Source: an uncultured archaeon (GTDB taxonomy: Archaea; Aenigmatarchaeota; Aenigmatarchaeia; PWEA01; JAGHBM01). From it: DNA of 64,000 bases. The stretch lies in assembly GCA_964640225.1 (NCBI GenBank), contig CAZXFI010000001.1, positions 119,321-183,320 on the forward strand, in the 5' to 3' direction. The notes beneath the pieces are model-generated. The model was given only the letters and a program-made list of their open reading frames with translations. It made no database searches and had not been told where the DNA came from. Shown here in pieces: positions 7,808 through 33,520 of this stretch. The position numbers and the translations under genes are program-made. Each line of letters begins with the position of its first letter. The first letter of the stretch is position 1.

Positions 7808-7835
7808 GAATAATATTTGTAATCCAATAAATAAA

Positions 7836-8931: not shown

Positions 8932-9311
8932 TGCAACCACATGCTTAACTTGACCTTTAGCGGGTCCGGGTTCACGTCCCCGGCTATAAAATAGCTTGAA
9001 ACTATCACAGTTCGGTTTTCCGGAAGTGACGCCGGCGTGCAGGATGCCCTGCATACCTGGACCGTGTAGTTCATGCCGGCCAGGCACTCCGACAAACCCG
9101 CCTCTATTCCCGAGCTGTCATCACCTAAGGCCATGGGCCTCAAAACCGCGTTTTCATCCAGGGATTTCAGGCAGTAATAACCCCTTTCCGATACGCCTAT
9201 GCTGTAAGTGTCATCTGCAGGCGCCCTGAAGAAAAAAAGCAGGGCCGTGACTACAAGAAGCCCTGCTATAACCGCTTCCAGGGTGAAAGACATTCCCTTA
9301 TTTCCATACAT
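8928..9311 (-). CDS. Pilin-like protein (127 aa)
   Basis: MYGNKGMSFTLEAVIAGLLVVTALLFFF (KG|M followed by a hydrophobic helix). Confidence 0.5.
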   Translation of the reverse strand: MYGNKGMSFTLEAVIAGLLVVTALLFFFRAPADDTYSIGVSERGYYCLKSLDENAVLRPMALGDDSSGIEAGLSECLAGMNYTVQVCRASCTPASLPENRTVIVSSYFIAGDVNPDPLKVKLSMWLQ

Positions 9312-10113
9312 AAGTTACCGCGCTCACGCTCTCTACATGGCCTGTTGAATTCTGAAGAAGCACTTTCTTCCTGTTTACCCCCGTGTTCCTGTCCGTGAGT
9401 TCGTAGCCGTAGTGCCAGGCTCCCCCGGTTTTTTCCACCGCCAGCCTAAAGGGACAGTCAACCCCGAACTTTTCCCTGGCCTCCTTCAGTTCCATGTCGG
9501 CCAGCGCGTTCATCTTTGATGTGGTCAGGCCCGTGTATCTCTGCGGGCTTATCTGGGTTACGTTCAATGTGTTGTTGGTTTCAGGAAGGGATCCGTAGCC
9601 GAAATTTGTCTCGTTGTCCCTTGAATAGAATATGTGAATTATTTTTTCCCCGTAAGAAGGCACGGAAACGTTGAAAGTCACGTTAACTTCATCCAGAAAA
9701 CCGTCCCCGTCCGAGTCCGTCACGTCTTTCAGCTCCGCCTCAAGGGTCTGGTTTCCGTCGTAAACCACTATTGAGCCGTTGTAGGCATTCTCGCCGGTTT
9801 CTATGTAGGCGAATCCCGTGACCCCGCTGTTGTCGGTGCCGTTCCACTCCTCCAGATGGAGGTCAACCCTGTATATACAGGAGCCCAGGCTGGGCTTCAC
9901 GGAATTTCCGGACCACTGCCACTCTTCCGGAATGCCCTGGTCGTTGAAAACCGTGTCGCTGAGCCCCTTTGCCAGGTGCTTGATTTCAAGGGACATACCC
10001 GTGTTCAACACTGGCTGGAGGAAATGGGACGAGTACAGCACGCTCAGGAAAACCACGAACATGGTTATGACCACGGCGAAAACAAGGTCTATCTGGTTGA
10101 AACCTTTCCTCAT
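9298..10113 (-). CDS. Pilin-like protein (271 aa)
   Basis: MRKGFNQIDLVFAVVITMFVVFLSVLY (RKG|F motif). N-glycosylation sequons are present. Confidence 0.5.
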   Translation of the reverse strand: MRKGFNQIDLVFAVVITMFVVFLSVLYSSHFLQPVLNTGMSLEIKHLAKGLSDTVFNDQGIPEEWQWSGNSVKPSLGSCIYRVDLHLEEWNGTDNSGVTGFAYIETGENAYNGSIVVYDGNQTLEAELKDVTDSDGDGFLDEVNVTFNVSVPSYGEKIIHIFYSRDNETNFGYGSLPETNNTLNVTQISPQRYTGLTTSKMNALADMELKEAREKFGVDCPFRLAVEKTGGAWHYGYELTDRNTGVNRKKVLLQNSTGHVESVSAVTYVWK

Positions 10114-10670
10114 AAGAACCTCTCCATTTTTACGTAATCCCTTACATCCCCGTTTTCCATGCCCCTCAGGTAGGAAAGCTTTATCTTGGTGGCCCTTCTC
10201 ACGGAACCGCCTGCCTCAACGGAGACCACGTTATAAATCGGGTAAACGAAAACCGCCGAGGGCTTTCCCTCAGTTTCTATCCTTACGCGGGTGTAGGGCC
10301 TGTCATCCTGGTAGCTTTCCTCGTCCCCCAGGCTTCCATCTATCCAGAGGTCGCCGTGGTTTTCCAGGCTAATGATGTAGTTGTTTCCGGATATGCTTTC
10401 CGGTATGTTCAGGTAAACCTCGGAAAGGGTTGTATTTTTACCTTCTTCCGGCTCGTAATCCGACTGCCTGTAGTTGTCGTAAAGCCTGATAACGCTGTCC
10501 GCCACCCTCTGGGATAGGATTCTGGCTTGGGACTGCTGGGATTCCTCTTTTACGGAAAAATAGTAGTTGTACATCTCAACCGAAACCCCTATCATCACCA
10601 CGAAGAGTATGGCTATCGCTATGACATGGGAAATGAAAACCGAAACTCCCTTTGACGAACATTCCTTCAT
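10110..10670 (-). CDS. Pilin-like protein (186 aa)
   Basis: MKECSSKGVSVFISHVIAIAILFVVMIGV. It overlaps the next gene by 4 nt. Confidence 0.5.
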   Translation of the reverse strand: MKECSSKGVSVFISHVIAIAILFVVMIGVSVEMYNYYFSVKEESQQSQARILSQRVADSVIRLYDNYRQSDYEPEEGKNTTLSEVYLNIPESISGNNYIISLENHGDLWIDGSLGDEESYQDDRPYTRVRIETEGKPSAVFVYPIYNVVSVEAGGSVRRATKIKLSYLRGMENGDVRDYVKMERFL

Positions 10671-14456: not shown

Positions 14457-15317
14457 CTAAAGCATTATGGTGAACGCAGTGAAGCCTATCGCAACGAACA
14501 CTATCAGGTGCTTTAGCCCCGCCAGCACCGAGCCTTCGGACATCTTGCCTATGGCCAGCCCCGAGAAAAAGCCCTGTATTATTATCAGGTTCTGGAACAC
14601 GTCCTTGTAGGCAAGCTCCTCCTCCCCCGCTCCTATGCCGAACTCGGTTGCCCCGCCGAAAACCAGGGACGGCATGAGGAATTTCTGCAGGCCTATTATC
14701 ACGGCAAGGAAAACGAAGTATATCACGTAACCGGTGAGTATCTGTGAGTAGACGTGCGATTTCCTTTCTTCCCTTATTTTCTCTATCTCCCTTATGCTCT
14801 CCCCAACAGACTTGAGCACGTCAGCTATGTTCCCCCCGCTCCTGTGGGTCTCTATTATGGTGGACACGGTCCTCTTGAGCACGCGGCTCCCGGTGTCCTT
14901 CGCAAGCGTCCTGAGAACCTGGTCAAAAGGTATGCCCCAGTCTATCTGCCCGGACATCTTCCTGACGTACGGGGAGAGAGCGCCGTAATCATTCTTGGAG
15001 GCCGACTCTATGGCCTGGGGAAGCGTCATTCCGGCCTCCACGCCCCCCACCACGTCGTTGAGGAAATCCGGGAATCTTGACTCTATCTCCTTGGTGCCCG
15101 TGTACTCCCTGTACTTTATGAGCGTGGCCGGCCCCAGCACCAGGGAGGCCCCTACCAGGTTCAGCACCGTGAAAATCTGGACAAGCTCCTGGAAAAAGAA
15201 GAAGTTCACCGAGATTATACTGACCCCTATCACAAGGGAGCCCAGAACGAAGTACTCCCTCTTTCTGGACACCGCCAGCCAGCTTTCCAGTCTCTTTCCA
15301 AGGTTTTTGAAATTCAT
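14457..15317 (-). CDS. FlaJ/TadC-like T2SS-F-domain membrane protein (C-terminal half)
   Basis: 286 aa polytopic membrane protein that resembles a T2SSF domain. It lies immediately downstream of a second T2SSF-like ORF. Confidence 0.6.
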   Translation of the reverse strand: MNFKNLGKRLESWLAVSRKREYFVLGSLVIGVSIISVNFFFFQELVQIFTVLNLVGASLVLGPATLIKYREYTGTKEIESRFPDFLNDVVGGVEAGMTLPQAIESASKNDYGALSPYVRKMSGQIDWGIPFDQVLRTLAKDTGSRVLKRTVSTIIETHRSGGNIADVLKSVGESIREIEKIREERKSHVYSQILTGYVIYFVFLAVIIGLQKFLMPSLVFGGATEFGIGAGEEELAYKDVFQNLIIIQGFFSGLAIGKMSEGSVLAGLKHLIVFVAIGFTAFTIML

Positions 15318-15321
15318 GGTA

Positions 15322-16104
15322 TCACATGTGCTCCGGTTGCGTGAAGTGTATGAACATTATGAAGGCTATGTTGGTGGCCGGTATAACCAAATATATTCCC
15401 AGGCTCATTATGTCCCCTATGGTCATGCCCTCTATCGTGCCGCCGACCACGTTCATTATGGCCAGTATTGAAATAAGGAAAAGCGGCGCCGCTATCATCA
15501 CCGCGGTGTAGAAATCGGCGTAGGTTGAAAGGGCCTGAAGGTGCTCCTCCCTCCTTATCCTGTAAATGAAAAGAGCCTCCCTTGCCTTTATCTGGAGATA
15601 ATTCTTCAGGTTTCCCCCGGTCTTTATCGTGGAAAGTATGCCGTAAAGCAGCTCCCTGAAATCGGTTGAGGGTGTATTGGCGGCCACGTTCTGTATTGCG
15701 GTGGTTATGTCCTGGCCGAAACCCTCCACGTTCCTTATTATCTTGGCGGCTTCCCTGCTTATCTCCCCGTACTCACCGAACTCGGAAAGCAGCTTGAACA
15801 GTATCTTGGGCGGCACGCCGGAGGTGGCTATGGCCGACATGTGGTTTATGGCGAAGGGCAGGTTGAAATCAAGGTTCCTTTTCCTGCTGAAGGCCTTCTG
15901 GTAAGGGTAATAATACAAAAGAGCGAACACGGCTCCCGCGACACCCAGGGAAATAAGGGGAGTCAGGTAAACCAGTATTCCTGGATATATAACGAGGGTT
16001 ATAAAAAAAATCACAGGAAGCGAAGCCACGTAAGAGAGCACGGTAGCCAGGAATATGACGGACACGTAGGTTCTTGAAAGCATTTTCAGTCCGGACTCCC
16101 TCAT
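15322..16104 (-). CDS. FlaJ/TadC-like T2SS-F-domain membrane protein (N-terminal half). The start is uncertain.
   Basis: T2SSF-like topology. The track ORF extends to 16311 and would overlap the FlaH-like gene by 105 nt. Starting at the internal Met (MRESGLKML) removes that overlap. Confidence 0.55.
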   Translation of the reverse strand: MRESGLKMLSRTYVSVIFLATVLSYVASLPVIFFITLVIYPGILVYLTPLISLGVAGAVFALLYYYPYQKAFSRKRNLDFNLPFAINHMSAIATSGVPPKILFKLLSEFGEYGEISREAAKIIRNVEGFGQDITTAIQNVAANTPSTDFRELLYGILSTIKTGGNLKNYLQIKAREALFIYRIRREEHLQALSTYADFYTAVMIAAPLFLISILAIMNVVGGTIEGMTIGDIMSLGIYLVIPATNIAFIMFIHFTQPEHM

Positions 16105-16205
16105 TTTTTTCTTGAGGGGCTCAAAATTTTTTGAATATTTGTCAACGAGCCTGCCGAAAATAATCACGGATATTTTTTTAAAGTTCAAATACGCCAACGA
16201 ATCAC

Positions 16206-16898
16206 CTATACGAAGGACTTGGTCTCTTCCTTCGGATACACCACTATCCCTTTCTCCGTTATGGAGTAGGGGTGTATGTTCTCCGAGTGCGCGGAGCCCC
16301 TCATTTTCCACACGTGTATGGCCCTGGCAAAGCTGGTTTCCCTCGGTATCCTGTATAAAACTATTACGTCATCAGCAACGTGCTCCTCAACCCCGAAAGT
16401 GCTCAGGAGCCTCGGGTTTCCCGTGGGTATTTCCGATGTGAGCACCGAAGTGCAGCCCGACCTCTTGAGCATCCTGCCCACGTTGAATATGGCGGACCTG
16501 AGGTCGGACTGGTTCCTTATGTTCAGACCTAGCCCGGTTATGCTGTCTATGACGACCCGCTCGGCCCCTATCTCATGTATGTTATTTTCTATCAGGCCGT
16601 ATATGTCCTCTATGTGGAGCGGGTCGTACTTCACGAAGGTAATCATGCCCTCCTGCTCGTACTTGTCAAAGTGCCACCCGAAGTTTTTCATGTTCCTCTT
16701 CACGTCCTCGGTCCTCTCCTCAAAGGACACGAAAATTCCCGGGGAATTGAAAAACCTGGCTGAGTTGTAAAGGTACTGGCAGGCCATTATGGTTTTGCCG
16801 GTCCCTGCCATTCCCGTTATCAGGACCAGGTCCGAAGGCAGGAAACCTCCACCCAGTATCTCGTCCAGTCCCGGTATGTTTGTCCTTACTCTCTCCAT
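16206..16898 (-). CDS. FlaH-like KaiC/RecA-superfamily ATPase
   Basis: 230 aa with Walker A GMAGTGKT. The single KaiC-like domain is typical of archaellum FlaH/ArlH. Confidence 0.7.
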   Translation of the reverse strand: MERVRTNIPGLDEILGGGFLPSDLVLITGMAGTGKTIMACQYLYNSARFFNSPGIFVSFEERTEDVKRNMKNFGWHFDKYEQEGMITFVKYDPLHIEDIYGLIENNIHEIGAERVVIDSITGLGLNIRNQSDLRSAIFNVGRMLKRSGCTSVLTSEIPTGNPRLLSTFGVEEHVADDVIVLYRIPRETSFARAIHVWKMRGSAHSENIHPYSITEKGIVVYPKEETKSFV

Positions 16899-16902
16899 AA
16901 AA

Positions 16903-18546
16903 CTAACCTTTCTTCTTTTTCAGCCCGTCGAGCATCTTGCTGACCGCGGGTATGTCCTTCATGACCTCTTTGGGGCTTATGTGGTACTGGGAAACTATCC
17001 TACTTACCTCTTTCCAGTGCACGACATTTTTGTCAACCATCCACCTGAGTATTTTTTCCCTGTTTTTTATCTCCTTTCTTACTTCCTCCAGCGTCATGCC
17101 CCTGAAGCTGGCTATCTTGTTCAGGACGTAGCTTCCCTCTCCCTTGTCAAAGCTGTCCCTGGAGGAAATCCACCTGAAAACAGAGCCCGACCTCACCGAG
17201 CCGCTGGATTCCACGGACTCTATCTCGTCAATGCTCTTTATCCTTCTTGCGGACTTGCCTTTCTCCTTCGCGTGGGTGAGCGTGACCACCAGGTCCAGTA
17301 TCTCCACCAGGCTGGGCGAAAGCTCTATCGGAGGAGACTGTAGCCTCTTTATCACCGTGGAAACCCCCGCGGCGTGCATGGTGCCTATGGATGGGTGGCC
17401 CGAAGCCATTCCCTGGAACATCACCGAGGCCTCCTTGCCTCTTATCTCCCCGACTATCACGTAATCCGGGTTTTGCCTGAAGCTTTCCTTCAGCAGGTCA
17501 AACATGCTCACCTCCCCGTACCTCTCCCCAGTGGGCTCCATGGCACCGAATCCCATCCTTGTTACGGAGGGAATCCAGTTCTCGTGCGGAAGCTGCAGCT
17601 CCCTTGTGTCCTCTATTGAGACTATCTTGAACTCGGGAGGTATGAAAAGGCTTATGGCGTTAAGCATGGTGGTCTTTCCCGTGGCCGTGCCCCCGCATAT
17701 CAGCATGGAGATCCCGGACTCAATGCAGAACCACAGGTATGCCATGGCCTCCACGGAGGAGGTTTCCAGGTTTATCAGGTCTATGGGGGACATGGGCTCG
17801 GAGCTGAATTTCCTTATGGAGAACGTGGGGCCCTTTGTGGTGACATCCTCTGCCAGGGAAGCCTGCACTCTGCTCCCGTCAGGCAGGGCCCCGTCCAGGA
17901 GCGGCTCGGCGTAGCTTATGTACCGGCCGCACCTCTCTGAAAGCTTTACCACGAAGTTCTTTAGCCTGTCATTGTCCTTGAACATAATATTGGTCTCTAT
18001 GGAGCCCAGTTTCTTGTGAACCACGTAGATGGGAATGTTAAGCCCGTCGCAGGAAATGTCCTCTATGTAGGGGTCGTGCATGAGCGGCTCTATATCGTTG
18101 AGCCCCACGAAGTCCCTGTAGATGTAGTACATTATCTTGTTGTAGGAAACGTTGTCCAGCTCTATCTCTATCTCGTCCAGTATCTTCCTTACCTTGTCCT
18201 CCAGGTACTCAAACGCCTTGTCCGCGTTCTTCACGGAGGAAAGGTGTATATCCACAACCTCCACCAGGCTCTCCTTTATCTTTGCGTAAACATCCTGCTC
18301 TTTCTTGCCCAATTTGGGCTCCTTCAGCCTGTAGAGCAGCCCCCCTTCAACGTCGCTCCACTTTATGTGGACGTAAGAAAAAGGCTCCAGAAGGGGGTAC
18401 GTTGTCCTGAATTTCTTTATCTCCTTTATCTTTGGAAAAACTATGAGCTTGTCGGGAACTTTCATTATGAACTTAAGGCCCTCGCTCTTTCCGGGTTTCT
18501 CCCTCAAAGCTCCCCTGAGGCTTTTTATCTTCTCTACAAAATCCAT
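16903..18546 (-). CDS. FlaI/TadA-like type II/IV secretion ATPase (GspE/VirB11 family)
   Basis: 547 aa with Walker A GGTATGKTT and the conserved GspE-family core (SIEDTRELQLPHENW, VGEIRGKEA). Confidence 0.85.
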   Translation of the reverse strand: MDFVEKIKSLRGALREKPGKSEGLKFIMKVPDKLIVFPKIKEIKKFRTTYPLLEPFSYVHIKWSDVEGGLLYRLKEPKLGKKEQDVYAKIKESLVEVVDIHLSSVKNADKAFEYLEDKVRKILDEIEIELDNVSYNKIMYYIYRDFVGLNDIEPLMHDPYIEDISCDGLNIPIYVVHKKLGSIETNIMFKDNDRLKNFVVKLSERCGRYISYAEPLLDGALPDGSRVQASLAEDVTTKGPTFSIRKFSSEPMSPIDLINLETSSVEAMAYLWFCIESGISMLICGGTATGKTTMLNAISLFIPPEFKIVSIEDTRELQLPHENWIPSVTRMGFGAMEPTGERYGEVSMFDLLKESFRQNPDYVIVGEIRGKEASVMFQGMASGHPSIGTMHAAGVSTVIKRLQSPPIELSPSLVEILDLVVTLTHAKEKGKSARRIKSIDEIESVESSGSVRSGSVFRWISSRDSFDKGEGSYVLNKIASFRGMTLEEVRKEIKNREKILRWMVDKNVVHWKEVSRIVSQYHISPKEVMKDIPAVSKMLDGLKKKKG

Positions 18547-18554
18547 CTTAACCC

Positions 18555-18815
18555 CTATCTGCTGCTTCTTTTTACCACGCTGTGAAACCTAGCGCATTTG
18601 GGGCATATGTACTGCTTCTGCTGTATGGTGTGTATGCTCTGCCTGTCCAGCTCCTTCCTCAGCACGGGGTCGGTAATCCTGAACCCCCTTCTCCTGGTTA
18701 TGCACTTCCACCTGGGAACTTTGGAGCCGCAGAGGCTGCACCTTACGGTGGATTCCCTTCCTCTTTCCCTTCCGTGGTCGTAACCTCTCTTGTATGGCGC
18801 TTTTGCTTTTGGAAT
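18555..18815 (-). CDS. rps26e: Ribosomal protein S26e with an apparent non-canonical ATT start
   Basis: The track missed this gene. Translation (M/I)PKAKAPYKRGYDHGRERGRESTVRCSLCGSKVPRWKCITRRRGFRITDPVLRKELDRQSIHTIQQKQYICPKCARFHSVVKRSSR fits the S26e pattern (RC..C..VP..K.I...YIC..CA.H..VV). The frame has no in-frame ATG, GTG or TTG after the upstream stop. A GGAGG Shine-Dalgarno lies 8 nt before the ATT. Confidence 0.5.
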   Translation of the reverse strand: MPKAKAPYKRGYDHGRERGRESTVRCSLCGSKVPRWKCITRRRGFRITDPVLRKELDRQSIHTIQQKQYICPKCARFHSVVKRSSR

Positions 18816-18830
18816 AAATATCCCCTCCTT

Positions 18831-18896
18831 TATAATTAGATAGGGTTATTAAATAAATTATTAGAAAGCATATATACTTTACAAGGCCCGTTTTTC
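18831..18896. promoter_or_regulatory. Divergent promoter region between rps26e (minus) and archease (plus), with a TATATA box at 18871-18876
   Basis: AT-rich 66-nt intergenic region. The TATA element lies about 30 nt from the archease ATG and about 55 nt from the S26e start. The minus strand has a GGAGG Shine-Dalgarno at 18824-18828. Confidence 0.4.
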
Positions 18897-18908
18897 ATGG
18901 GTGTTTTT

Positions 18909-19325
18909 ATGTACGAATTCATAGAAGACCTGACCTCAGACGTGATGTTCGTGGCCGAGGCCCCGGACCTAGCTTCGCTTCTAGAGGAGTCCGCCAGGGC
19001 CCTTTTTGACGTGGTTTGCAACCGCAAGGCCGTAGAACCAAAAGAGAATGTACGGATTGTAGTAGAAGCCGAAACTCCTGAAAAACTCCTGTACGAATGG
19101 TTGTCACGGCTGCTCACCGAGTCTGATTCCAACGAGCTTTTCTTTTCAGAATTTCAAGTCTCTGTTTCGGAGCAGGATGGCAAGCTCGTGGCCAGGGGCG
19201 AGGCTTTGGGAGAACCTTACTCACAAGAGAAAAGCGGAACAGTGGTCAAGGGCATAACCCTGTACGGCTTTGAGGTGGAAAAAACAGAAAAGGGCTACAG
19301 GGCAAGGGTGGCCTGCGATATCTGA
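18909..19325 (+). CDS. Archease (RtcB activator)
   Basis: MYEFIEDLTSDVMFVAEAP...LFDVV matches the archease family. The start was taken at the internal Met of the track ORF (18897). Confidence 0.8.
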   Translation: MYEFIEDLTSDVMFVAEAPDLASLLEESARALFDVVCNRKAVEPKENVRIVVEAETPEKLLYEWLSRLLTESDSNELFFSEFQVSVSEQDGKLVARGEALGEPYSQEKSGTVVKGITLYGFEVEKTEKGYRARVACDI

Positions 19326-19332: not shown

Positions 19333-20289
19333 TCAAATCACACCGCTTTCATCAATCGAGAACAGGTTATGTTCCGAATCCAGTGAGGCTTCGACGCACA
19401 AAGGAACTGTTATCATCGGGTCAGTATGACCGATATCCACTTCAGTTAGTACAGGAATGTCAATATTTTTCACGTGTTTGGTAATTATTTTCCGAAGTTT
19501 TATCCTTTCTTCTCTGCTGTATCCGTACCCTCTTCCAACTACAAGCCCCTTTATTACGTCAAAAACACCGTGATTTATCAAGTCCGTTATCTCAGAATCA
19601 ACGTACTCCAAAGGCTCTCCTTTCGTGAAATCCTGACCCTCCGGTATATCCAGAAAGAGTATTTTGTTTTTGTAATTAAGTTCAAATTTTGTTCCATTTA
19701 ATTTAATGATGGACGGTAGGCATCCTCCGACTATCTGACCTTTGACCGAACCGGGATTGACCCATACGAATCCGTTATTTGTATTCATTTTTCTTGGCCT
19801 CTTGGTATCTTCTTTTCTGGACCAATCTAAGTTCTCGTCTGTCCACTCCCTTGAAGGTTCTATCCTCCCGACTTCCTGTGAAAGACATCTCAAAAAGTAT
19901 TTCATTGTATAATCAATCGGTCTCGGGAATTCTCCGAACTGGGTCATTGCCGCCGGACCGTAAAATGTCACAAGACCTGCCATTTTATTGAAAGCGTGAT
20001 GAAGTATTGTTATATCAGAATATCCGCAAAATATTTTTGGGTTCTTTCTGATAATACCGTAATCTATACGATTGACAAGCTCATTGGAGGAAAGTCCTCC
20101 TATATTACATACTATAGCTTTGACTTCGGTATCCGAGAAACAATCATGGATATCATCCAGTCTGTTCTGAATTGTCCCTGCTCTTCCGTCTAGAAACGTT
20201 CTTGTAGTTTTAAATTCCCTCGTCTTAAAGCCAAATTCCTTGATAGCTTTTTCGGCATTGTCGATTCTATGCTGAAAAAGTCCGCCCAA
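19333..20289 (-). CDS. LD-carboxypeptidase (peptidase S66, MccF/LdcA family)
   Basis: 318 aa with the S66 fold signature (GYSDITILHHAF, GHTDPMITVP). AT-rich. Confidence 0.7.
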   Translation of the reverse strand: MGGLFQHRIDNAEKAIKEFGFKTREFKTTRTFLDGRAGTIQNRLDDIHDCFSDTEVKAIVCNIGGLSSNELVNRIDYGIIRKNPKIFCGYSDITILHHAFNKMAGLVTFYGPAAMTQFGEFPRPIDYTMKYFLRCLSQEVGRIEPSREWTDENLDWSRKEDTKRPRKMNTNNGFVWVNPGSVKGQIVGGCLPSIIKLNGTKFELNYKNKILFLDIPEGQDFTKGEPLEYVDSEITDLINHGVFDVIKGLVVGRGYGYSREERIKLRKIITKHVKNIDIPVLTEVDIGHTDPMITVPLCVEASLDSEHNLFSIDESGVI

Positions 20290-20396
20290 GCCACTGGAAG
20301 GTGCTATAAAAGCAACAGTATCTCCTTTTTCAAGTTTTTTTGCCTTTAAAATTCAAACCACCTCCATAGATAAATAGAATAAACAAATTAATAACA

Positions 20397-21233
20397 TTAT
20401 TTTTTACCGATTACAAACAAATTGTTTCCTCTTCCAGAGGCATCCTCATTTAAAATCAATTCCTTCTCTATTGAAAAAATTTTTAGGTAGTTTTTGTTTG
20501 AAAGCAGGGTATCTATTTTTTTCGTGGAACCCTTCAATCTGGTCTCTTCGTATCCGGGATATAAAGACACAGGAAACCCGTACACTGATACGTTTTTTAA
20601 CCCGTTCTTTCTATAAATCTCTTTAATTCCGCTTGGTGTAAAAAATTTTATTTCAGGCATATCGTCGCAGAAAACTCCTGTCGATGTTTTAGATATTTTA
20701 TCTGAAGCGGAAATATTACCCTGAGTAAGATTAAAAAAAACTCCATGATACTTGTTAGGTACAACAGATATCAAGTAGCCTCCTTTCTTTAGAACTCTAT
20801 ACATCTCCGAGACAGCCTTCTCTGGGTTACATAAGAATCCCAAAACATTGTATAAATTTATCACGAGATCATATTCGCAATTTCTCTGGTCTATCATATT
20901 TTCAATATTTCCTATCACAATATCTGACCTTTCGTCCAATTTATTATGTTTTATCTTATCTTTTGCCACTCCTGTCATATCTTCCGAAATATCGTATAGA
21001 ATACCTTCGGAATTTTTAAAATTCTCCAAAATTTTAATAAACCACCTTCCCGTCCCGCCACCAGCGTCCAAAAATTTAAATTTTGATGTTTTTCTCATAT
21101 CTTCTAAAGCAAATCTATTTAGCAGGTACCATAGAAGTTTATCAGAAAGATTCCAATATATCTGTTTTTCCACTAGGTCATATTCAGTACACTTTTTTTT
21201 AAAATATTCTATAACATTTTTTTCTGAATACAT
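20397..21233 (-). CDS. Class I SAM-dependent methyltransferase
   Basis: Motif I FLDAGGGTGRWF, with motif II/post-I LYDISEDM. The start was moved to the internal ATG to avoid a 74-nt overlap with the upstream gene. Confidence 0.65.
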   Translation of the reverse strand: MYSEKNVIEYFKKKCTEYDLVEKQIYWNLSDKLLWYLLNRFALEDMRKTSKFKFLDAGGGTGRWFIKILENFKNSEGILYDISEDMTGVAKDKIKHNKLDERSDIVIGNIENMIDQRNCEYDLVINLYNVLGFLCNPEKAVSEMYRVLKKGGYLISVVPNKYHGVFFNLTQGNISASDKISKTSTGVFCDDMPEIKFFTPSGIKEIYRKNGLKNVSVYGFPVSLYPGYEETRLKGSTKKIDTLLSNKNYLKIFSIEKELILNEDASGRGNNLFVIGKK

Positions 21234-21240
21234 AAACCGG

Positions 21241-22377
21241 TTACACCCCCAATTCTTTATGTCCTCTTGGAAATGATGAAACAGACCATATAAAATTAAG
21301 TTTGAGCAAACCATGTATCAGTCTTTCCCAACCCATACCGAATCCTGAAGTTGTTTCGTAGTTGGGCAAAGTTCTGGATATCAAATAGGGTTCATAATCT
21401 TTTCTAGGTAGATTGAAAATTTCAGCTTTATACTCCAGCTCATTTACGGTTCTTACCCTCCGGCCACTGCCAATTATTTCCCTGTATCCCGGCCATATAA
21501 CATCCGCATTCTGGGAAGTTTTTGGGTCTGAACCGTCTACAACAGCGTGATAAAATGAAACCTCTAGTAAAGGGAACTCCTTAATGGCTACGATAGACCC
21601 TAAAATTTCTGTAATCTTTACTTCTTCCCACGGACCAAAATATTTTAAAGTGAATTTTCTGTATTTTTCGTTTCCCGTATGAGTATACAATAAATCCAAT
21701 GCTTCCTTGAAAGTTATTTCCTTTATTTTATTCTTCTTCGACATTGACTTCAATTCAAGCAAATCTTCGTCTGTAATGAAATACAAAAGATCGGGAGAAT
21801 TTTTCTTTATACAGTCCTTTAGAAATTTAGACAAGAGACCCCACAGAATATCCATATTCTGGGACTGATTTACATTGCCTTCATATTCTATGTGATGGAA
21901 TTCAGACAAATGCGTGGAATCTGCCCTTTCCTTTCTAAATGAATTGTAGATGGAAAAAACGTGGCTCAAATTTTTCTGAAGAAGAGTCAGCTCTAGATAA
22001 ATTTGGGAAGATTCGGAAAGAAATACCTTATCGGGCAAGTCGAACCAGTTGAGAGTTATTGGGCAAGTGTCTGTAGTATAATCTATTTTCTCCTTACCAT
22101 AAACAGCGCCTGGAGACGATATCATTCTGGTTGTCAGCGGAAGTGGTACAAATGTAGCACCCATTCCATCGAAATACTCTACCGACGAGATGAACAATCT
22201 ACTGTTTATTCTGGATAAGTGTGACCACACCCCATTTTCTGGAAAATCTTTTACTCTTTTCAGAACTTCGCTTGAGGCCGGATACGAGTAATTTGAAACA
22301 TTCTTTAGAGAATTAAAGATTTTATTTCCCCTGTAAGATATGGTACCGTCATTGTTTGCGGTGTACGGGCCTAACAT
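21241..22377 (-). CDS. Class IIb aaRS catalytic-core paralog (AsnRS/AspRS/AsnA-like) lacking an N-terminal anticodon-binding domain
   Basis: 378 aa. Motif 2-like FRKERADSTHLSEFHHIEYE and motif 3-like TSGFGMGWERL are present. Only about 50 aa precede motif 1, so there is no OB-fold. AT-rich. Confidence 0.6.
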   Translation of the reverse strand: MLGPYTANNDGTISYRGNKIFNSLKNVSNYSYPASSEVLKRVKDFPENGVWSHLSRINSRLFISSVEYFDGMGATFVPLPLTTRMISSPGAVYGKEKIDYTTDTCPITLNWFDLPDKVFLSESSQIYLELTLLQKNLSHVFSIYNSFRKERADSTHLSEFHHIEYEGNVNQSQNMDILWGLLSKFLKDCIKKNSPDLLYFITDEDLLELKSMSKKNKIKEITFKEALDLLYTHTGNEKYRKFTLKYFGPWEEVKITEILGSIVAIKEFPLLEVSFYHAVVDGSDPKTSQNADVIWPGYREIIGSGRRVRTVNELEYKAEIFNLPRKDYEPYLISRTLPNYETTSGFGMGWERLIHGLLKLNFIWSVSSFPRGHKELGV

Positions 22378-22397
22378 ACAATGTGTTAATTTTTATA

Positions 22398-23624
22398 CTA
22401 TAAATTTTCAATTTCAGATATTATGGCGCTTTCTGGAATAGTCTTGCTACTGTTTCCTTTTCTAAAAACGACAGAATTAGTCTCCAATTCCTTATCGCCA
22501 ACTATAATCATTCTGGGAACTCCTATATCATCATATGTCTTGATTTTTTCTCCCATAGTTTTTTTTCTGTCTTCCCAAACGACATCAAATCCGTTGTTTT
22601 TCATTTCTTGGTGTATCTCTCCGCATTTTTTTTCCTGGGCAATTGTATTGTTGACGGAAAACACTACAACGTCATAAGGCACTAATTCATTTGGCCATTT
22701 TATACCAAATCCGCTTCTGTTTTGTTCAGCAACTGAATGTAATATTCTTGAGACACCTAAAGCATAAGTTCCGAGATGAAAGTAATTTTTGTTGAAATTG
22801 CTATCTTGAAACTGCGCGTTAAATTTAAGGGAATACCTGTCGTTCTCTTTCATTATACATCCAAGTTCTATTCCCTGAGATATGATAAATTTTTCGTTGC
22901 ATCCATCACAAAAGTTTTCGTCCCTGTAAATAATTTTCTTGCCGCAGTCGCAAGAACCTATTTTAGTATCTCCCTCGTCAGAAATCGATAGGAATGTTGT
23001 ATAACCATCCCTTTTTTCAAGTGCTATTGTCTCCAAATCCAGACGAGAGAAAATTCTGTCGAATGTTTCAAAAAATAACGAAGAACTTTCGTCCAAACCT
23101 TCCTTACTTGAATCTATACTATAAGATTCCAGCATTCTAAAAACATTTGTCCTAACTATACCATGCTTCGCCCCCTTATCATCTCTAAATTTGTCGGCAA
23201 TCTGATAAAAACGGGTCGGCAACTGTTTATAAGAATGTATTAAATTTTTAGCAATCGTCGTGGCAACTTCTTCGTTTGTGGGAGATAGCACATATCTGGA
23301 ATCTCCTATGCCATATCTACCTTTAGTAAAAATCATCGATTTATTGAATTGTTCGTCTCTGCCGCTTTTTTCCCAGTAGAAATAAGGTTGCAAAGGCGGT
23401 AAATATATTTCCTGTATATCACTCTTTCCCATCTCTTCCCTCATGATTTTTTCCAGTTTGTTGATTATTTTTTGCCCGATTGGAAAATACGAATACATTT
23501 TATGGTCATCGAACGGGTAATTTATAATTGAAATTTTTTCTAAAAGTTCGTATGTAGACGGCTCTTTGATATCGTTTATTTTCTTCTCTGACCAGAGCAT
23601 TCTCGATGCCCTCATATTTACCAT
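22398..23624 (-). CDS. Compact bacterial-type prolyl-tRNA synthetase-like protein (class IIa, no INS editing domain)
   Basis: 408 aa. There is strong collinearity with the bacterial ProRS catalytic domain (LSPTNEEV..., YKQLPTRFYQIADKFRDD, VRTNVFRMLESYS) and a class IIa anticodon-binding C-terminus. AT-rich. Confidence 0.65.
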   Translation of the reverse strand: MVNMRASRMLWSEKKINDIKEPSTYELLEKISIINYPFDDHKMYSYFPIGQKIINKLEKIMREEMGKSDIQEIYLPPLQPYFYWEKSGRDEQFNKSMIFTKGRYGIGDSRYVLSPTNEEVATTIAKNLIHSYKQLPTRFYQIADKFRDDKGAKHGIVRTNVFRMLESYSIDSSKEGLDESSSLFFETFDRIFSRLDLETIALEKRDGYTTFLSISDEGDTKIGSCDCGKKIIYRDENFCDGCNEKFIISQGIELGCIMKENDRYSLKFNAQFQDSNFNKNYFHLGTYALGVSRILHSVAEQNRSGFGIKWPNELVPYDVVVFSVNNTIAQEKKCGEIHQEMKNNGFDVVWEDRKKTMGEKIKTYDDIGVPRMIIVGDKELETNSVVFRKGNSSKTIPESAIISEIENL

Positions 23625-23739
23625 ATAAAAATGATTACAAAATCTATTTATTCTTTAGAAATACTTTATTAGTATCGCGTGTGCCCGGCATTGAGATGCA
23701 AACGGGCGCAGGCTTTTTTCTGCGCTTAGTTTCATGTAG

Positions 23740-25194
23740 GTGATGTTTATGAAAGACAAGATGGAAAAAATCAGCGAAGTCAAGTGGAGAATCCCCAAGA
23801 GCTTCAGGAAGGAAATGCGGACCGACTGCATGGTTTACGGGAACGAATACGTAATAAAGCAGGTGGAGGAGGACGCGCTCCGCCAGCTGACAAACGTGGC
23901 CTGCCTTCCCGGGGTAGTTGAGCCCGTGATAGGTGCCCCGGACATACACTTCGGCTACGGCCTTCCCATGGGGGCCGTGGGGGCCTTTGACAAGGACGAG
24001 GGAGTTATATCTGCCGGATGCACGGGGTTTGACATAAACTGCGGCATTCGCATGATTAAAACAAACCTCACCAAAGATGAGGTCCGGAAAAGGATACGCA
24101 TACTTATAGACGTCCTGTTCCGCAACGTGCCATGCGGAGTCGGGGCAAAGGGAAAGCTCCGCCTCAATTACGACCAGCTGGAAGAGGTGCTTACCCGGGG
24201 TGCCGGGTGGGCCCTGGACAACGGCTACGCGGTAGAGGAGGACCTGGAGCACATGGAGGAGAACGGGTGCATGGAAGGGGCCGACCCGGAGAAGGTAAGC
24301 GACTCCGCCATGAAAAGGGGGCTACCGCAACTGGGAACCTTGGGCGCGGGAAACCACTTCCTTGAGGTACAGGCCGTGGACGAAATCTTCGACGAAGAGA
24401 CTGCCAGGGCCTTCGGCCTGGAAAATCCCGGGCAAGTCGTTATTATGCTCCACTGCGGCTCGCGCGGCTTCGGCCACCAGGTGGCCTCGGACTACCTGAA
24501 GGTTCACGAGAAGGCCGCCAAAAAGTACAAAATCTGGCTGCCGGACCCCCAGCTCGTGTGCGCCCCCACCACCTCAGAGGAGGGCCAGGACTACTATTCC
24601 GCTATGAAATGCGCCGTGAACTACGCCTTCACCAACAGGACCGTGATGACCAAGTGGATAAGGGACTCATTTGAGGAGGTTTTTGACCGGGAGTGGGAGG
24701 ACATGGACATGCGCACGATTTACGACGTGTGCCACAATATATGCAAGAAAGAGAAGCACAAAATTGAGGGCAAGGAAAAGGAGCTTTACGTTCACAGGAA
24801 GGGTTCAACCCGCGCACTTCCTCCGGGCCACCCGCTGAACCCGAAGTCCTACGCAAAAACGGGACACCCGGTGCTTATAGCGGGCTCAATGGGCACCGCA
24901 TCCTACATACTCGTGGGAAGCAACAAGTCCGAGGAAAGTTTTTACAGCACGTGCCACGGCGCGGGCCGCGTCATGTCAAGGCACCAGGCCCTCAAAACGT
25001 TTTTCGGGGAAAAGGTAAAGCAGGAGCTCATGGACAAGCAGAAGATTTACGCAAAGGCCACCCACGGCAAGGTCCTCTCCGAGGAGGCCCCCGGCGTTTA
25101 CAAGAACATAGACCAGGTGATAGAGTCTGTGCACCAAGCCGGAATCTCCCTGAAGGTGGCCAGGATGGTACCCTTGGGAGTGGCCAAGGGATAA
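23740..25194 (+). CDS. rtcB: tRNA-splicing ligase RtcB
   Basis: 484 aa with the conserved RtcB metal and GTP-binding motifs (GFDINCG, HCGSRGFGHQV, NHF). Confidence 0.9.
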   Translation: MMFMKDKMEKISEVKWRIPKSFRKEMRTDCMVYGNEYVIKQVEEDALRQLTNVACLPGVVEPVIGAPDIHFGYGLPMGAVGAFDKDEGVISAGCTGFDINCGIRMIKTNLTKDEVRKRIRILIDVLFRNVPCGVGAKGKLRLNYDQLEEVLTRGAGWALDNGYAVEEDLEHMEENGCMEGADPEKVSDSAMKRGLPQLGTLGAGNHFLEVQAVDEIFDEETARAFGLENPGQVVIMLHCGSRGFGHQVASDYLKVHEKAAKKYKIWLPDPQLVCAPTTSEEGQDYYSAMKCAVNYAFTNRTVMTKWIRDSFEEVFDREWEDMDMRTIYDVCHNICKKEKHKIEGKEKELYVHRKGSTRALPPGHPLNPKSYAKTGHPVLIAGSMGTASYILVGSNKSEESFYSTCHGAGRVMSRHQALKTFFGEKVKQELMDKQKIYAKATHGKVLSEEAPGVYKNIDQVIESVHQAGISLKVARMVPLGVAKG

Positions 25195-25341
25195 ATAAGA
25201 AACGTGTTTAAACTTACTTAAATAAAAGATTAATAGAAACGAACAATTATTTAAGTTTTATAATTTATTATTAAACGAGGTGGTTTTATTAACGACCCGA
25301 GTTATTCATATCAGTTAAATAAAAGAAATGGAAAAGACGTA

Positions 25342-25410
25342 ATGAAAATTTACGGCTCCTTTGAGGGGGGATTTGACGGTTGTGGAAGCCATACACATGG
25401 ATTTAGTTAG
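25342..25410 (+). CDS. Candidate 22-aa Cys/Gly-rich precursor peptide (MKIYGSFEGGFDGCGSHTHGFS)
   Basis: Small ORF found by eye 18 nt upstream of the radical-SAM/SPASM gene on the same strand. There is no homology support. Confidence 0.25.
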   Translation: MKIYGSFEGGFDGCGSHTHGFS

Positions 25411-25428
25411 TTATTTTAAAGTGAACTT

Positions 25429-26769
25429 ATGAATAGTCCGTGGTTTGAAAAAAAATATTCCAAATTAGTTGAAAATGTAATTCCATTAATATTAAAAGTG
25501 AAAAATAAAGATTATAGAGTTTTTTTGGATTCAAGTACAGGAGCTTGGGTTTATTCCTCTTTGAATAAAAATAAAGACAATTTTACTGAAGCTGAAAAGG
25601 AATTTTTGTATAAAAGAGGTATGGTAAAAGATAAAGAAGGTAATTATGTAGAAATAGAAAGACCTAAAATACAAAAATGCTCTCCTTCCAGCTTTGTACT
25701 GAACCTTACTTTAAATTGTAACTTAAGTTGCAAATATTGTTTTGCTGAAGCTTCAACCGATTTTAAAAAACCGAATATTATTAAAGAAGATGTAATAAAA
25801 AGAACCGTGGATGAGATTTCAAAGGTACCGCATAAAAGAGTTAGGTTAGAATTTCAAGGAGGGGAGCCGCTAATCGCAAAGGATAGTCTCTTTTTTGCAT
25901 TAAATTACGCAAAAGAAAAAATAAAAAGCAAATCTATAACGTTCGGAATGGAAACTAATGGTACATTAATTGATGAAGAAACTGTTAAATTATTAGAAAA
26001 ATTTAATTTTACAATTGGTATAAGTATAGATGGTCCTGAGAAAATTCATGACCTAGCCCGTGTATACCCCAACGGAAAGGGTAGCTTTCAAGAAACAGAA
26101 GCTGGATTAGATTTACTTATAAAATCAAAAAAACTCAAAGAAAAACTAGGTTCTATAGTAGTAGTAGGTAAACATAATTGTAATAGACCAAAGGAAGTTG
26201 TTGAATATTTTAATAAAAAAAATATTACATTTAAACCCATACCCGCTAATCCTGCCGGTAGAGCAACAGAAAATATTGTAGCTACTTCAGAAGAATATTA
26301 TAACTTTTTTATAAAAGCGTATGAATATAGTGAAAAATTAAAATTAAAAAATATAATGTCTTATGTTTTCAATATGAATGTTTATACTCCCTTAAGGGAC
26401 TATATATGCCTAAGGTCTCCTTGTGGTATGGGTAATGAGATAATATCAATAAATCCCGATGGTTCTGTAAGACCTTGTGATGGATTTAAATCAAACCCTG
26501 AATTTGAAATTGGTAATATTTTAAATGAAGACCTCTCTGATATATACTCTAAAGAAAAAACCAAAAAATTATCTTCTAGAAGTTTTAAAGATATAGAAAA
26601 ATGCTCAAAATGTAATTTCAAAGGAATGTGTGGTCCTTGTGCGTATGCTTCTTATGGTCTTTTTGGAAGTATATACAGAGAAGATCCAAAATGTCTAGCC
26701 AAAAGAAAAATTTTCATATATTTAATGAAAAGATATATAGAAAGGTCAGAAAATAAAAAACGTGATTAA
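25429..26769 (+). CDS. Radical SAM enzyme with C-terminal SPASM domain and an N-terminal RRE-like extension of about 95 aa
   Basis: CNLSCKYC (CxxxCxxC) at about residue 100. C-terminal Cys cluster CSKCNFKGMCGPCAYAS. AT-rich. Confidence 0.75.
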   Translation: MNSPWFEKKYSKLVENVIPLILKVKNKDYRVFLDSSTGAWVYSSLNKNKDNFTEAEKEFLYKRGMVKDKEGNYVEIERPKIQKCSPSSFVLNLTLNCNLSCKYCFAEASTDFKKPNIIKEDVIKRTVDEISKVPHKRVRLEFQGGEPLIAKDSLFFALNYAKEKIKSKSITFGMETNGTLIDEETVKLLEKFNFTIGISIDGPEKIHDLARVYPNGKGSFQETEAGLDLLIKSKKLKEKLGSIVVVGKHNCNRPKEVVEYFNKKNITFKPIPANPAGRATENIVATSEEYYNFFIKAYEYSEKLKLKNIMSYVFNMNVYTPLRDYICLRSPCGMGNEIISINPDGSVRPCDGFKSNPEFEIGNILNEDLSDIYSKEKTKKLSSRSFKDIEKCSKCNFKGMCGPCAYASYGLFGSIYREDPKCLAKRKIFIYLMKRYIERSENKKRD

Positions 26770-27333
26770 ATGAAGAACACTATTATTTTTGATATGAACT
26801 CTACACTTGATAATGATTCAGAAATGGAGATAAATATAATATCAGAAATCATAAAAAATAAAAATCCAATGAAAATATATGTTGAATTGGTTAGGAACGA
26901 TTTAAAGCATCCCGACTGGGACTACAAGGAAATAGTTGAAAAAACCTTTGAAAAATACGTTGAAGACCCTCAAAAATCCGCTGAATTTTTCATAAAAAAC
27001 AAGAAAGTGCGTGTGAGAAAATTCTTTGTTGACTTTATTAATGAAAATTTTAAAAAATACAGATTTTTTGTGGTGTCAAAAGAAAACGAGGAATTGGTGA
27101 AAGCAAAGCTTAAAGAGGCCGATTTACTGGACAAATTTGAGGGTGTATTTAGAATACAGAAGCCTTCTGTGGAAGGACTTGAAAAAATACTTTTGAAAAA
27201 CAATATAAAACCAAGTGAATGTACGTTCGTTGGGGATGACCCGCTGTTGGATTTATTGCCTGCCAAAGCCCTCGGGATGAAAACCGTTCTCGTAAATTCT
27301 TTCGTTGATGAAACATGGAAAATAGAAAAATAA
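26770..27333 (+). CDS. HAD-superfamily hydrolase-like protein
   Basis: C-terminal FVGDDPLLDLLPAKALGMKTVLV resembles HAD motifs III/IV. 187 aa. Confidence 0.4.
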   Translation: MKNTIIFDMNSTLDNDSEMEINIISEIIKNKNPMKIYVELVRNDLKHPDWDYKEIVEKTFEKYVEDPQKSAEFFIKNKKVRVRKFFVDFINENFKKYRFFVVSKENEELVKAKLKEADLLDKFEGVFRIQKPSVEGLEKILLKNNIKPSECTFVGDDPLLDLLPAKALGMKTVLVNSFVDETWKIEK

Positions 27334-27887
27334 TAATTGAAAAAATCTATACTAATAAATTAAATACATTTATTAAAGGAGATATTTTTTCTGGAAAAAC
27401 TTATTTTTTATCTGAAATACTAGATTATATTCAAGATAAAAAAGAAAGGGTTTTTTATATTGATACTACAACGGAGGAAAATGAAAAATCTCTGATTAAC
27501 CAGAGGGAATTAAAATCCTTAAAAATAACTGATAAAATAAAAGAAAGTGAAATTCTCAACAACATTAACTCAAACTTTATAGACATTTCATATAATCTAG
27601 AAAGAAATTTGGAGTTTTTAGAAAAGGGTGATAATGAAAATGCAGAAAAATATAGAAAAAAACAAAAAACTATTTTAAACAATTTAATTTCAATTTTTAA
27701 TAATCAAGAAAATTTATTTCTATTGTTTGATGAAGTAGATATATCACCATATGATTTATCAAATAAAAATGTGTATATCGCTACTGGGCATAAGGAAACG
27801 GAAAATGAAAAATTTGATATAACATTGGAGCTAGAAAAAACGAAAATAGTTAATGTAAACCAAAATGGTTTGAAGAATCTCGCCTGA
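27315..27887 (+). CDS. Small P-loop NTPase
   Basis: Walker A GDIFSGKT and Walker B LFLLFDEVD. 190 aa. Confidence 0.4.
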   Translation: MENRKIIIEKIYTNKLNTFIKGDIFSGKTYFLSEILDYIQDKKERVFYIDTTTEENEKSLINQRELKSLKITDKIKESEILNNINSNFIDISYNLERNLEFLEKGDNENAEKYRKKQKTILNNLISIFNNQENLFLLFDEVDISPYDLSNKNVYIATGHKETENEKFDITLELEKTKIVNVNQNGLKNLA

Positions 27888-28027
27888 AGTCCTCATCCGT
27901 TGCCGGCCTCATCACTAATCAGATGGTCTTTTGCACGTAGAACCAGTTTTGGCGTCCCCCTAAACCACGATGCCTCTAGATAAAATCAGTTTCTGCTAAG
28001 GTTTAGAGTCTTAAAATCAATTTAGAA

Positions 28028-28790
28028 CTATATCTCTATTTCCAAACCGTCATAAGCCACTTCAAAATTGCCCATTTTCCTGACTTTCTTTCGCAAATCC
28101 GCGTGCCTTTGGTGGTGATTCAAGTGGGTGAGATATGTTTTCCCGGCCCCTATTTCCTTCGCGAATTTAACAGAATTTTTCACCGAGAAATGCCCTTTTG
28201 AATTTCCTTTGTAAAAATCCTTTGTGGAATCTATTATCAGTATGTCCGATTTTTCTATCTTATTCCTTTGCTTCACGCCGCAACAATCTGGGGCGTAGAC
28301 AACTTTCTTTCCTTTCACCTTGAATATGAAACCCAATGTAAAAATTGAATGCTCCGCGGCAAAATAATCTATTTCCAGACCGCCTATCCTCAGGTTTCTC
28401 CTGATGGGCTTGAACTTCAAGACTTTGTCAAACGTCCAGGGATATTTCCCCTTCACCACCCGGAATATCCTTCTCTTTGTATACAAATCAATCCTTTTTT
28501 TTGTTTATTTTATATATCTCATTAAGGTCGTCCAGCCCTCCTATGTGGTCTTCGTGTGCATGCGTTATAAGAATGGCGTCTATCCTGGTCAGGTTTTCCT
28601 TGAGGGCCTGCTGGTGAAAATCCGGAGAAACGTCAACCAGTATGTTCTTTCCTTTGTTCTTTATCAGCAGGGAAGGCCGGGTTCTTGTGTCTTTTCTGTC
28701 CTTGCTTTTGCAAACCCTGCATTTGCACCCTATTCTTGGCAACGGCCATGCAGAACTTGTTCCCAGGAATTTTATTTTGGCCATATTCAA
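28028..28790 (-). pseudogene. Metallo-beta-lactamase-fold hydrolase interrupted by a frameshift in a T8 homopolymer
   Basis: ORF 28488-28790 carries THAHEDHIGG (HxHxDH). ORF 28028-28486 carries the C-terminal MBL motifs (H...DCCG). The frames abut at a run of 8 T at about 28494-28501. Confidence 0.55.
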
Positions 28791-28834
28791 TTATTTTATA
28801 CCAATAGTATAAAAACAGTCTCTTCAACGGAAAA

Positions 28835-29266
28835 TTAGTATATTTTCTCAATTCTACAATTACCAAGATAACTCATCAAACCAGAATAATTATCAGTATA
28901 GACATATGATTGTGGCGGAGTAAAATTAAATTCCGACTTTAATTTGCTCAAGGGTATTCCCTGCTCTAATTTATAAAGGTGATTTATTGGAAAAGCGTAT
29001 TTAGATACTTTTAAACCATTATTAAATTCATAATTTCCTATTCCATTTTCTGGAATCTTTCCCGGATATTTAATTGGGTTTCCAATCTCAATAATATATT
29101 GTAATTCACATATCGGTTGTGTAACGTATATTAAAATTTGTTTTATCGGGTCTTTGGGTACATACTTTCTAAATTCATATGTTTTTTTTCTTGTTGATAT
29201 TAAATTTGCAAACTTGGGTTTCAAACTTAAAATTATTTTCCTTCTTTTTTGTTCAATCATTTTCAA
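28835..29266 (-). CDS. ASCH-domain (PUA-like) protein
   Basis: ILSLKPKFANLISTRKKTYEFRKY matches the ASCH core. Confidence 0.4.
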   Translation of the reverse strand: MKMIEQKRRKIILSLKPKFANLISTRKKTYEFRKYVPKDPIKQILIYVTQPICELQYIIEIGNPIKYPGKIPENGIGNYEFNNGLKVSKYAFPINHLYKLEQGIPLSKLKSEFNFTPPQSYVYTDNYSGLMSYLGNCRIEKIY

Positions 29267-33519: not shown

Positions 33520-33520
33520 A

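Follow-up and report, generated by a model that had tools for sequence, protein, structure and literature searches.

The eS26 gene and its neighbourhood

The window analysed here, a stretch of 64 kb (64,000 nucleotides), carries on its minus strand a short reading frame that is well supported as the gene of ribosomal protein eS26 (S26e). The features at this locus are as follows:

16903..18546, minus strand: T2SSE/PilB3-like ATPase gene, its ATG 8 nt past the eS26 stop
18555..18815, minus strand: eS26 (S26e) coding sequence, 86 codons plus TAG, counted from ATT
18557-18555, minus strand: TAG stop of eS26
18813..18815, minus strand: predicted ATT (AUU) initiation codon of eS26, aligned with ATG or TTG of orthologues and invariant in 18/18 members of its clade
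18820..18828, minus strand: extended Shine-Dalgarno (SD) sequence GGAGGGGAT, kept as GGAGG[GA]GAT across the whole clade
18846..18848, minus strand: in-frame TAA closing the eS26 frame 10 codons 5' of the ATT
18845..18866, minus strand: AT-rich, TATA-like stretch TTTCTAATAATTTATTTAATAA, kept in the closest relatives (L001 and L010)
18897..19325, plus strand: archease gene, divergent from eS26

Positions 18848-18555 (minus strand) translate as PYLIIKEGIFIPKAKAPYKRGYDHGRERGRESTVRCSLCGSKVPRWKCITRRRGFRITDPVLRKELDRQSIHTIQQKQYICPKCARFHSVVKRSSR, with a stop at either end. No ATG, GTG or TTG occurs in this frame between the upstream TAA and codon 51, and the same holds for the orthologous loci L007 and L015. 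The earliest in-frame canonical start is a GTG at 18665, codon 51 from the ATT, which falls within the conserved core, after the first CxxC as well as the invariant YKR motif. The original prediction, which had described an S26e frame lacking any ATG, GTG or TTG ahead of its conserved residues, is thus borne out, as is its remark that the open reading frame track had overlooked the gene: the mechanical list holds only a 36-aa tail fragment at 18555..18665.

The protein scored just below the curated cut-off of the Pfam family Ribosomal_S26e (PF01283; 26.1 bits against a cut-off of 27, E=1.2e-5) and well below that of NCBIfam PRK09335 (37 bits against 118, E=2.4e-9). A profile built from 19 family members matched eS26 chains only among 177,635 PDB sequences (best E 5.4e-9), including the archaeal S26E chains 9e71_BX and 9fs6_b. 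The four zinc-ribbon cysteines (C26, C29, C71 and C74) are invariant in the alignment (A1), and the C4 zinc ribbon (CxxC...CxxC) sits in a Lys/Arg-rich protein of 86 aa, within the family range of about 85-120 aa. Nearly all homologues come from 'Candidatus Aenigmatarchaeota' metagenome-assembled genomes (MAGs); most are labelled hypothetical at NCBI, and two carry the label S26e at JGI. These data support well the assignment of the gene to a divergent eS26 subfamily that lies below the curated Pfam and NCBIfam cut-offs.

The gap of 8 nt between the eS26 stop and the ATG of the ATPase gene makes co-transcription of the two genes probable, and their synteny is kept in L002, L008 and L010-L014. 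The archease gene is transcribed divergently, so that the eS26 strand has no upstream gene from which translational coupling could arise. The TTTCTAATAATTTATTTAATAA stretch is a probable promoter of the eS26 transcription unit. Directly 3' of eS26 lies a type-IV-pilus/archaellum-like cluster (14457-18546, minus strand) with the PilB3/T2SSE ATPase, a KaiC-like ATPase and two T2SSF membrane proteins. The linkage of eS26 to the ATPase is kept in many Aenigmarchaeota loci; in L006 and L007, GatD/GatE follow eS26 instead.

The RNA genes of the window (23S rRNA, an archaeal RNase P RNA and a 113-nt tRNA) mark it as archaeal. The 23S rRNA match (58793-62721, minus strand) extends over 3929 nt against a model of 2987 nt, an insertion of about 940 nt, and an ORF in this region (59709-60089, minus strand) gave a weak match to LAGLIDADG_3 (E=5e-4); a probable explanation of the insertion is an rRNA intron that carries a degenerate homing endonuclease. 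The 23S gene has no 16S neighbour, which indicates that the rRNA genes are unlinked. The tRNA (63689-63801, plus strand; Rfam, 58.7 bits) was missed by ARAGORN, and its span of 113 nt makes an intron probable.

Start codon and Shine-Dalgarno sequence of eS26 across the phylum

The ATT at 18815-18813 stands exactly 8 nt past the GGAGG core of the SD sequence (18828-18824), as the original prediction had noted, and this spacing is identical to that in the model mRNA of Pyrococcus abyssi aEF1A, GGAGG-UGAUUUAA-AUG (PMC6237735). The extended SD GGAGGGGAT has one mismatch to GGAGGTGAT, the complement of a generic archaeal 16S 3' tail. The 16S 3' end was found neither in the window nor in any fetched locus, and all SD energies were computed with this assumed generic archaeal anti-SD; on that basis, which may differ from the anti-SD of the host, the duplex energy in the window is -10.8 kcal/mol. 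Folding of the start region was weaker than that of shuffled sequences (z=+1.0), and by this comparison no RNA structure that would sequester the SD or the start was found. Two other devices were considered and rejected. A short upstream ORF (ATG 18872-18870, 11 codons) falls within the AT-rich stretch that resembles a promoter, leaves 21 nt between its end and the ATT, and lacks conservation, which speaks against a role in coupling. The ATG and GTG codons near the SD are out of frame and run into immediate stops, which discounts a frameshift or another frame as the source of a start.

In addition to the closest homologues, 160 further loci were fetched, and all were parsed for eS26 starts. 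Eighteen distinct eS26 genes, 65-87% identical to the window gene, all have the arrangement GGAGG-N7/8-ATT. In a neighbour-joining tree these 18 genes are monophyletic, and their sister L008 (60% identical) uses ATG in the context GGAGGT-GAAGAG-ATG-CCG. The DNA of the closest homologues (P0001, P0002, P0005, P0004 and P0019) reads AAGGAGG[GA]GAT-N4-ATT-CCA in each case. Their public gene calls start elsewhere: P0001, P0002 and P0005 have improbable N-terminal extensions that read through '...KEGIxIPK...', and P0004 and P0019 start at internal Met codons. In L094, a 1-nt deletion between the SD and the ATT shifts the upstream frame; hence the stretch upstream of the ATT is non-coding, and the 'KEGI' translation is the SD read as codons. 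In the alignment, the window ATT occupies the column of the ATG in L008 and of the ATG or TTG in 117 other genes. Distant orthologues start M/L-P-[IV]-S-K-A-P-Y-K-R with an SD 7-9 nt 5', and the window gene has I-P-K-A-K-A-P-Y-K-R with its isoleucine at the initiator position, in good agreement with the earlier proposal that the ATT occupies the place of the expected N-terminal Met.

The codon columns of the 18 clade members were decisive for selection on the ATT. Among the 37 degenerate codon columns at invariant residues, 36 vary synonymously, and the ATT alone is represented by a single codon. The other two invariant isoleucine columns are mixed (ATA16/ATC1/ATT1 and ATA11/ATT3/ATC4), and the median pairwise synonymous-codon identity of the clade is 0.48. 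Together, these comparisons show that SD-positioned AUU initiation is, as far as sequence can tell, the sole reading consistent with the conservation data. The best reading of the locus is thus that AUU initiation at eS26 is genuine, selected and SD-dependent; we put the probability that eS26 is translated from this SD-positioned ATT start codon at about 85%.

A homologue of eS26 occurs throughout the Aenigmarchaeota (146 distinct genes; loci L010-L169, from MAGs and metagenomes) and is often mis-started in public databases. The initiator position in these 146 genes is ATG in 65, TTG in 52 (36%), GTG in 2 and ATT in about 25 (24 plus L080, which has ATT-ATC). Single genes have ATA (L130, the sister of which, L131, has TTG) and CTG (L158). 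Parsimony on the start codon gave 17 state changes with up to six origins of ATT; four of the extra ATT lineages have an in-frame GTG within the SD, which leaves some ambiguity.

Calculated with the generic archaeal anti-SD, the median SD energies were -10.8 kcal/mol for ATT genes, -12.4 kcal/mol for TTG genes and -7.9 kcal/mol for ATG genes, and the SDs of both ATT and TTG genes were stronger than those of ATG genes (Mann-Whitney, p=1.7e-5 and p=1.5e-9, respectively). Every non-ATG eS26 start is preceded by an exceptionally strong SD. By comparison, 28% of the ATG genes are essentially without an SD, and 10 of these 17 SD-less genes show, between -36 and -24, a TATA-like box that would be consistent with leaderless mRNAs. 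The other long genes on the same contigs (n=368) had a median SD energy of -5.7 kcal/mol, and the SD was as strong as -10 or stronger in 7% of them and as strong as -12 or stronger in 1%; even with these values taken as upper bounds on SD strength, the eS26 SD is exceptional. An SD-less genome background of the kind that accompanies bS21/rpsU was not found: a candidate SD of -8 kcal/mol or lower precedes 23% of these other long genes, and in the window a GGAGG stands 6-9 nt before the ATG of about 12 genes. The combination of a weak start codon with an exceptionally strong predicted SD is thus shown to be recurrent in the Aenigmarchaeota eS26 family.

ATT starts at other genes and alternative readings

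The ATT of eS26 might have no gene-specific meaning if start selection were relaxed genome-wide, for example through an altered aIF1 or initiator tRNA. The original prediction had named appreciable initiation at ATT or ATA in this organism as one of two options, beside single-base errors, and had proposed a search for such starts at other highly conserved genes. In the window, 3 of about 55 genes lack a canonical start, and two of the three have an ATT at the position of the homologues' Met1 together with strong SDs. The two genes besides eS26 are an LD-carboxypeptidase gene that opens at ATT and an aminoacyl-tRNA synthetase (aaRS)-like ORF without a canonical start:

19333..20352, minus strand: LD-carboxypeptidase (Peptidase_S66) gene, 339 codons; an ATT at 20352-20350 replaces the initiator ATG
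20359..20365, minus strand: GGAGGTG, the SD sequence that precedes the LD-carboxypeptidase gene, with 8 nt between GGAGG and the ATT
29253-30326, minus strand: class-I aaRS-like ORF with HIGH-like SPHFGT, KLSKS and CPxCG motifs

The LD-carboxypeptidase frame opens with TGA directly followed by ATT, and its SD, at -15.7 kcal/mol with the same assumed anti-SD, is stronger than that of every other gene start in the window. A canonical codon first appears at codon 22, a TTG that follows the conserved KGDTVAFIAPSSG motif, and the Pfam S66 N-domain profile has its position 1 at residue 13. Homologues of 340-343 aa all begin MIKPKKLEKGDT, the window protein begins ILKAKKLEKGDT, and its isoleucine aligns exactly with their Met1. 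The public call (P0025, 318 aa; NCBI and Logan) begins at the internal TTG and is hence truncated. The sequence is identical in two per-run assemblies. None of the fetched relatives has an orthologue, and the closest homologues (65% identity or less) are from Woesearchaeota/Nanoarchaeota, so the gene was probably acquired by transfer. Both this gene and the aaRS-like ORF lie in an AT-rich island (~20000-34000; GC 0.29-0.41 against about 0.50 elsewhere, with a spike of 0.57 at 24-25 kb), which also holds methyltransferase and aaRS genes and may be foreign DNA.

The aaRS-like ORF has 390 homologues and gave no Pfam or NCBIfam match. It has no canonical start before codon 56 or before its HIGH-like motif, and homologue N-termini (MKILHD..., MLHDG...) align from the first codons after its TAA. 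The only near-start codon is an ATA at codon 3, with no SD and with an A9 run just 5'. This ORF may start at ATA, be a pseudogene or contain a homopolymer error in the A9 run. The original prediction had described a TrpRS-like paralog without a canonical start at 30161-30330: the missing start was found again, but a paralogy to TrpRS could not be demonstrated, since searches with Pfam, NCBIfam and PDB profiles did not support the label and the true TrpRS is the neighbouring gene (30427-31554). Further start-less 5' stretches of the window were rejected as candidates. Those at 7346-7903, 9298-10215, 15322-16368, 37455-38027, 41690-42640, 47310-49499, 51815-52777 and 53415-54323 are accounted for by overlap with an upstream gene or by a Sec61-beta gene before an AP-endonuclease gene. 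This small Sec61-beta-like gene (42547-42702, minus strand; MAKDKQSMPMSTAGLTRYFDE...) is too short for the length cut-offs commonly set for ORFs, and L006 has the two genes in the same order.

The use of ATT beyond the window was assessed with an odds ratio (OR) for SD-preceded codons at 5' ends, based on 393 long genes in about 780 kb of Aenigmarchaeota DNA; this design was used instead of an earlier strict, SD-anchored 64-codon survey, which was too noisy and sparse. SD-preceded codons were enriched at 5' ends for ATG (OR 7.2), slightly for TTG (1.65) and not for ATT (0.67); ATT thus does not serve as a general start in this phylum. On contigs of relatives, L002 and L006 among them, no additional ATT starts came to light. 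Moreover, the ATT of eS26 is older than this genome, clade-wide and under selection. Appreciable ATT/ATA initiation in the organism, one of the two original options, therefore has further cases in the window on its side and the missing enrichment across the phylum against it. With the genome-wide use of ATT in this organism judged from 64 kb of its genome, we consider generally relaxed start selection unlikely, and the ATT of eS26 appears to be an old, clade-wide and gene-specific trait rather than a sign of genome-wide recoding.

Initiation could also take place at another in-frame codon, either the ATA two codons upstream of the ATT (18821-18819) or an internal codon such as the GTG at 18665. 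ATA is itself near-cognate, and a few clade members do have canonical alternatives: L005 has an ATG two codons upstream, aligned with the window ATA, and L006 and L098 have an ATG three codons downstream of the ATT. However, the extended SD (GGAGGGGAT-A) ends with this upstream ATA, which follows GGAGG by only 2 nt and is thus too near for placement in the P site, and this position varies within the clade (ATA, ATT or ATG, and GAT in L094). A start at GTG 18665 would remove the first zinc-ribbon CxxC and the invariant YKR motif. Since invariance is limited to the ATT, initiation at a different codon is very improbable.

The suggestion that eS26 is a decaying pseudogene, for which loss of the ATG would be a common first lesion, might also appeal to the Pfam and NCBIfam scores below the curated cut-offs. 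These low scores are, however, common to the ATG-started Aenigmarchaeota orthologues of this divergent subfamily. The frame is intact in 18/18 clade members, the SD is kept at the correct spacing, no second copy of eS26 was seen in the window, and the abundant synonymous change alongside conserved residues, including the four Zn-binding cysteines, indicates purifying selection on the protein; we give this explanation hardly any weight. Finally, although the window stems from a metagenome-assembled genome and a single G-to-T difference would suffice to conceal a true ATG, a sequencing or assembly error is excluded by the per-run Logan assembly L170 (run SRR7048225), which matches the window at 100% identity along 2957 nt that take in the eS26 start, and by the invariant ATT in 18 distinct orthologues from different samples and assemblies; the ATT of the LD-carboxypeptidase gene likewise recurs in two per-run assemblies. 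On the choice between real ATT initiation and an error, which had been left between the two, the independent assembly and the orthologues thus favour the former.

SD-positioned initiation at AUU would place eS26 in a class of start codons that is known but rare. In Escherichia coli, infC (encoding IF3) and pcnB start at AUU/ATT. An ATT start is also given for ebpA of Enterococcus (PMC4447247). The closest archaeal parallel is the Asgard tubulin gene atubA, which had also been annotated too short and for which an ATT start was inferred from N-terminal homology and the spacing to the ribosome binding site; unlike eS26, it concerns one gene in one genome, with no test of conservation or selection and no link to the translation apparatus (PMC13394414). 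A literature search for an ATT start of eS26, for start-codon usage in Aenigmarchaeota or for eS26 in DPANN archaea found no report, and the eS26 case would be a new and unusually well supported member of the class.

A possible feedback on eS26 synthesis

As a small-subunit component at the mRNA exit channel, eS26 is known only from Saccharolobus solfataricus and eukaryotes (PMC11698992). The archaeal protein wraps the 3' end of the 16S rRNA in this channel in a manner incompatible with an SD:anti-SD duplex and is bound more loosely than other ribosomal proteins; when present in excess, it eliminates the toeprints of SD-leadered mRNAs and spares those of leaderless ones (PMC11698992). In bacteria, bS21 shares its ribosomal site with eS26 and autoregulates rpsU via an exceptionally strong SD (PMC9976891). 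By analogy, we propose tentatively that Aenigmarchaeota eS26 might control its own synthesis by competing with the SD duplex, since its mRNA joins one of the strongest SDs in the genome to a start codon that is near-cognate (AUU or UUG, in single cases AUA or CUG); we hold this to be possible, with the odds against it.

In the favoured reading of the locus itself, the extended SD GGAGGGGAT, 8 nt upstream, places the 30S subunit on the AUU of eS26, which the initiator Met-tRNA presumably reads with a third-position mismatch, as at bacterial infC. The proposed circuit would build on this as follows. The weak codon would make initiation wholly dependent on SD:anti-SD pairing. If eS26 on the 16S 3' tail excludes the SD duplex, as published for S. 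solfataricus, then a near-cognate start unusable without SD anchoring would be initiated only by 30S subunits that lack eS26 and have a free anti-SD. Translation of the eS26 mRNA would be poor on subunits with eS26 bound and good on those free of it, with the result of a negative feedback that sets the level of eS26. Such a feedback would be an archaeal counterpart of the bS21/rpsU circuit, arrived at by convergence, with an infC-type weak codon in addition.

Several observations speak against this feedback. About a quarter of the ATG-type eS26 genes in the phylum look leaderless, and on the published model eS26 would favour such mRNAs, not repress them. SDs also precede many other genes here, unlike in Bacteroidia, so that eS26 occupancy would affect those as well. 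The second ATT gene of the window encodes a non-ribosomal enzyme, and ATT starts in this genome hence need no rationale specific to eS26.

The known systems resemble the eS26 case in different respects. The infC gene of E. coli uses its AUU for autoregulation. Like infC, eS26 has a conserved AUU on a gene of the translation machinery and appears to be SD-dependent, and the low efficiency of the start is regulatory in infC. Unlike eS26, which is not known to proofread codons, infC owes its feedback to the discrimination of IF3 against non-canonical codons; the eS26 host is moreover an archaeon with initiation of the aIF1/aIF2 type, in which regulation of eS26 is a proposal of ours. The bS21 protein of Flavobacterium johnsoniae and other Bacteroidota is likewise a small platform protein that binds loosely at the mRNA exit channel and masks the anti-SD, and its rpsU gene has an SD that is exceptionally strong against the rest of the genome (PMC9976891), as has the eS26 gene. 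The two proteins are nevertheless unrelated, and no near-cognate start has been reported for rpsU. In contrast to the otherwise SD-less Bacteroidia, Aenigmarchaeota place SDs on many genes, and the present case is known from sequence. The eS26 of S. solfataricus (9e71, 9fs6) is homologous, with a zinc ribbon and basic tails, and provides the structural basis for the proposed feedback (PMC11698992). It differs in that S. solfataricus is a TACK crenarchaeon with mostly leaderless mRNAs, the eS26 start of which has not been reported as unusual, and in that the Aenigmarchaeota proteins form a divergent subfamily under the Pfam and NCBIfam cut-offs.

Reviews place eS26 in TACK and Asgard archaea. 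Gene callers miss or mis-start the gene across a phylum, with NCBI records that are hypothetical, truncated or extended; this affects completeness estimates as well as the view that only TACK and Asgard archaea have eS26. If the feedback is true, eS26 would be an exchangeable modulator of initiation outside these two groups too. A conserved AUU start is very rare, and in the understood case of infC it serves regulation. The clade-wide AUU reported here stands on the gene of the sole archaeal protein known to compete with the SD duplex, and it offers a concrete way to test whether archaeal eS26 acts as an exchangeable factor that regulates SD-led against leaderless translation. The eS26 family also presents a natural series of codons at one homologous position (AUG, UUG, GUG, AUU, AUA and CUG), with which the start-codon stringency of aIF1/aIF2 may be probed.
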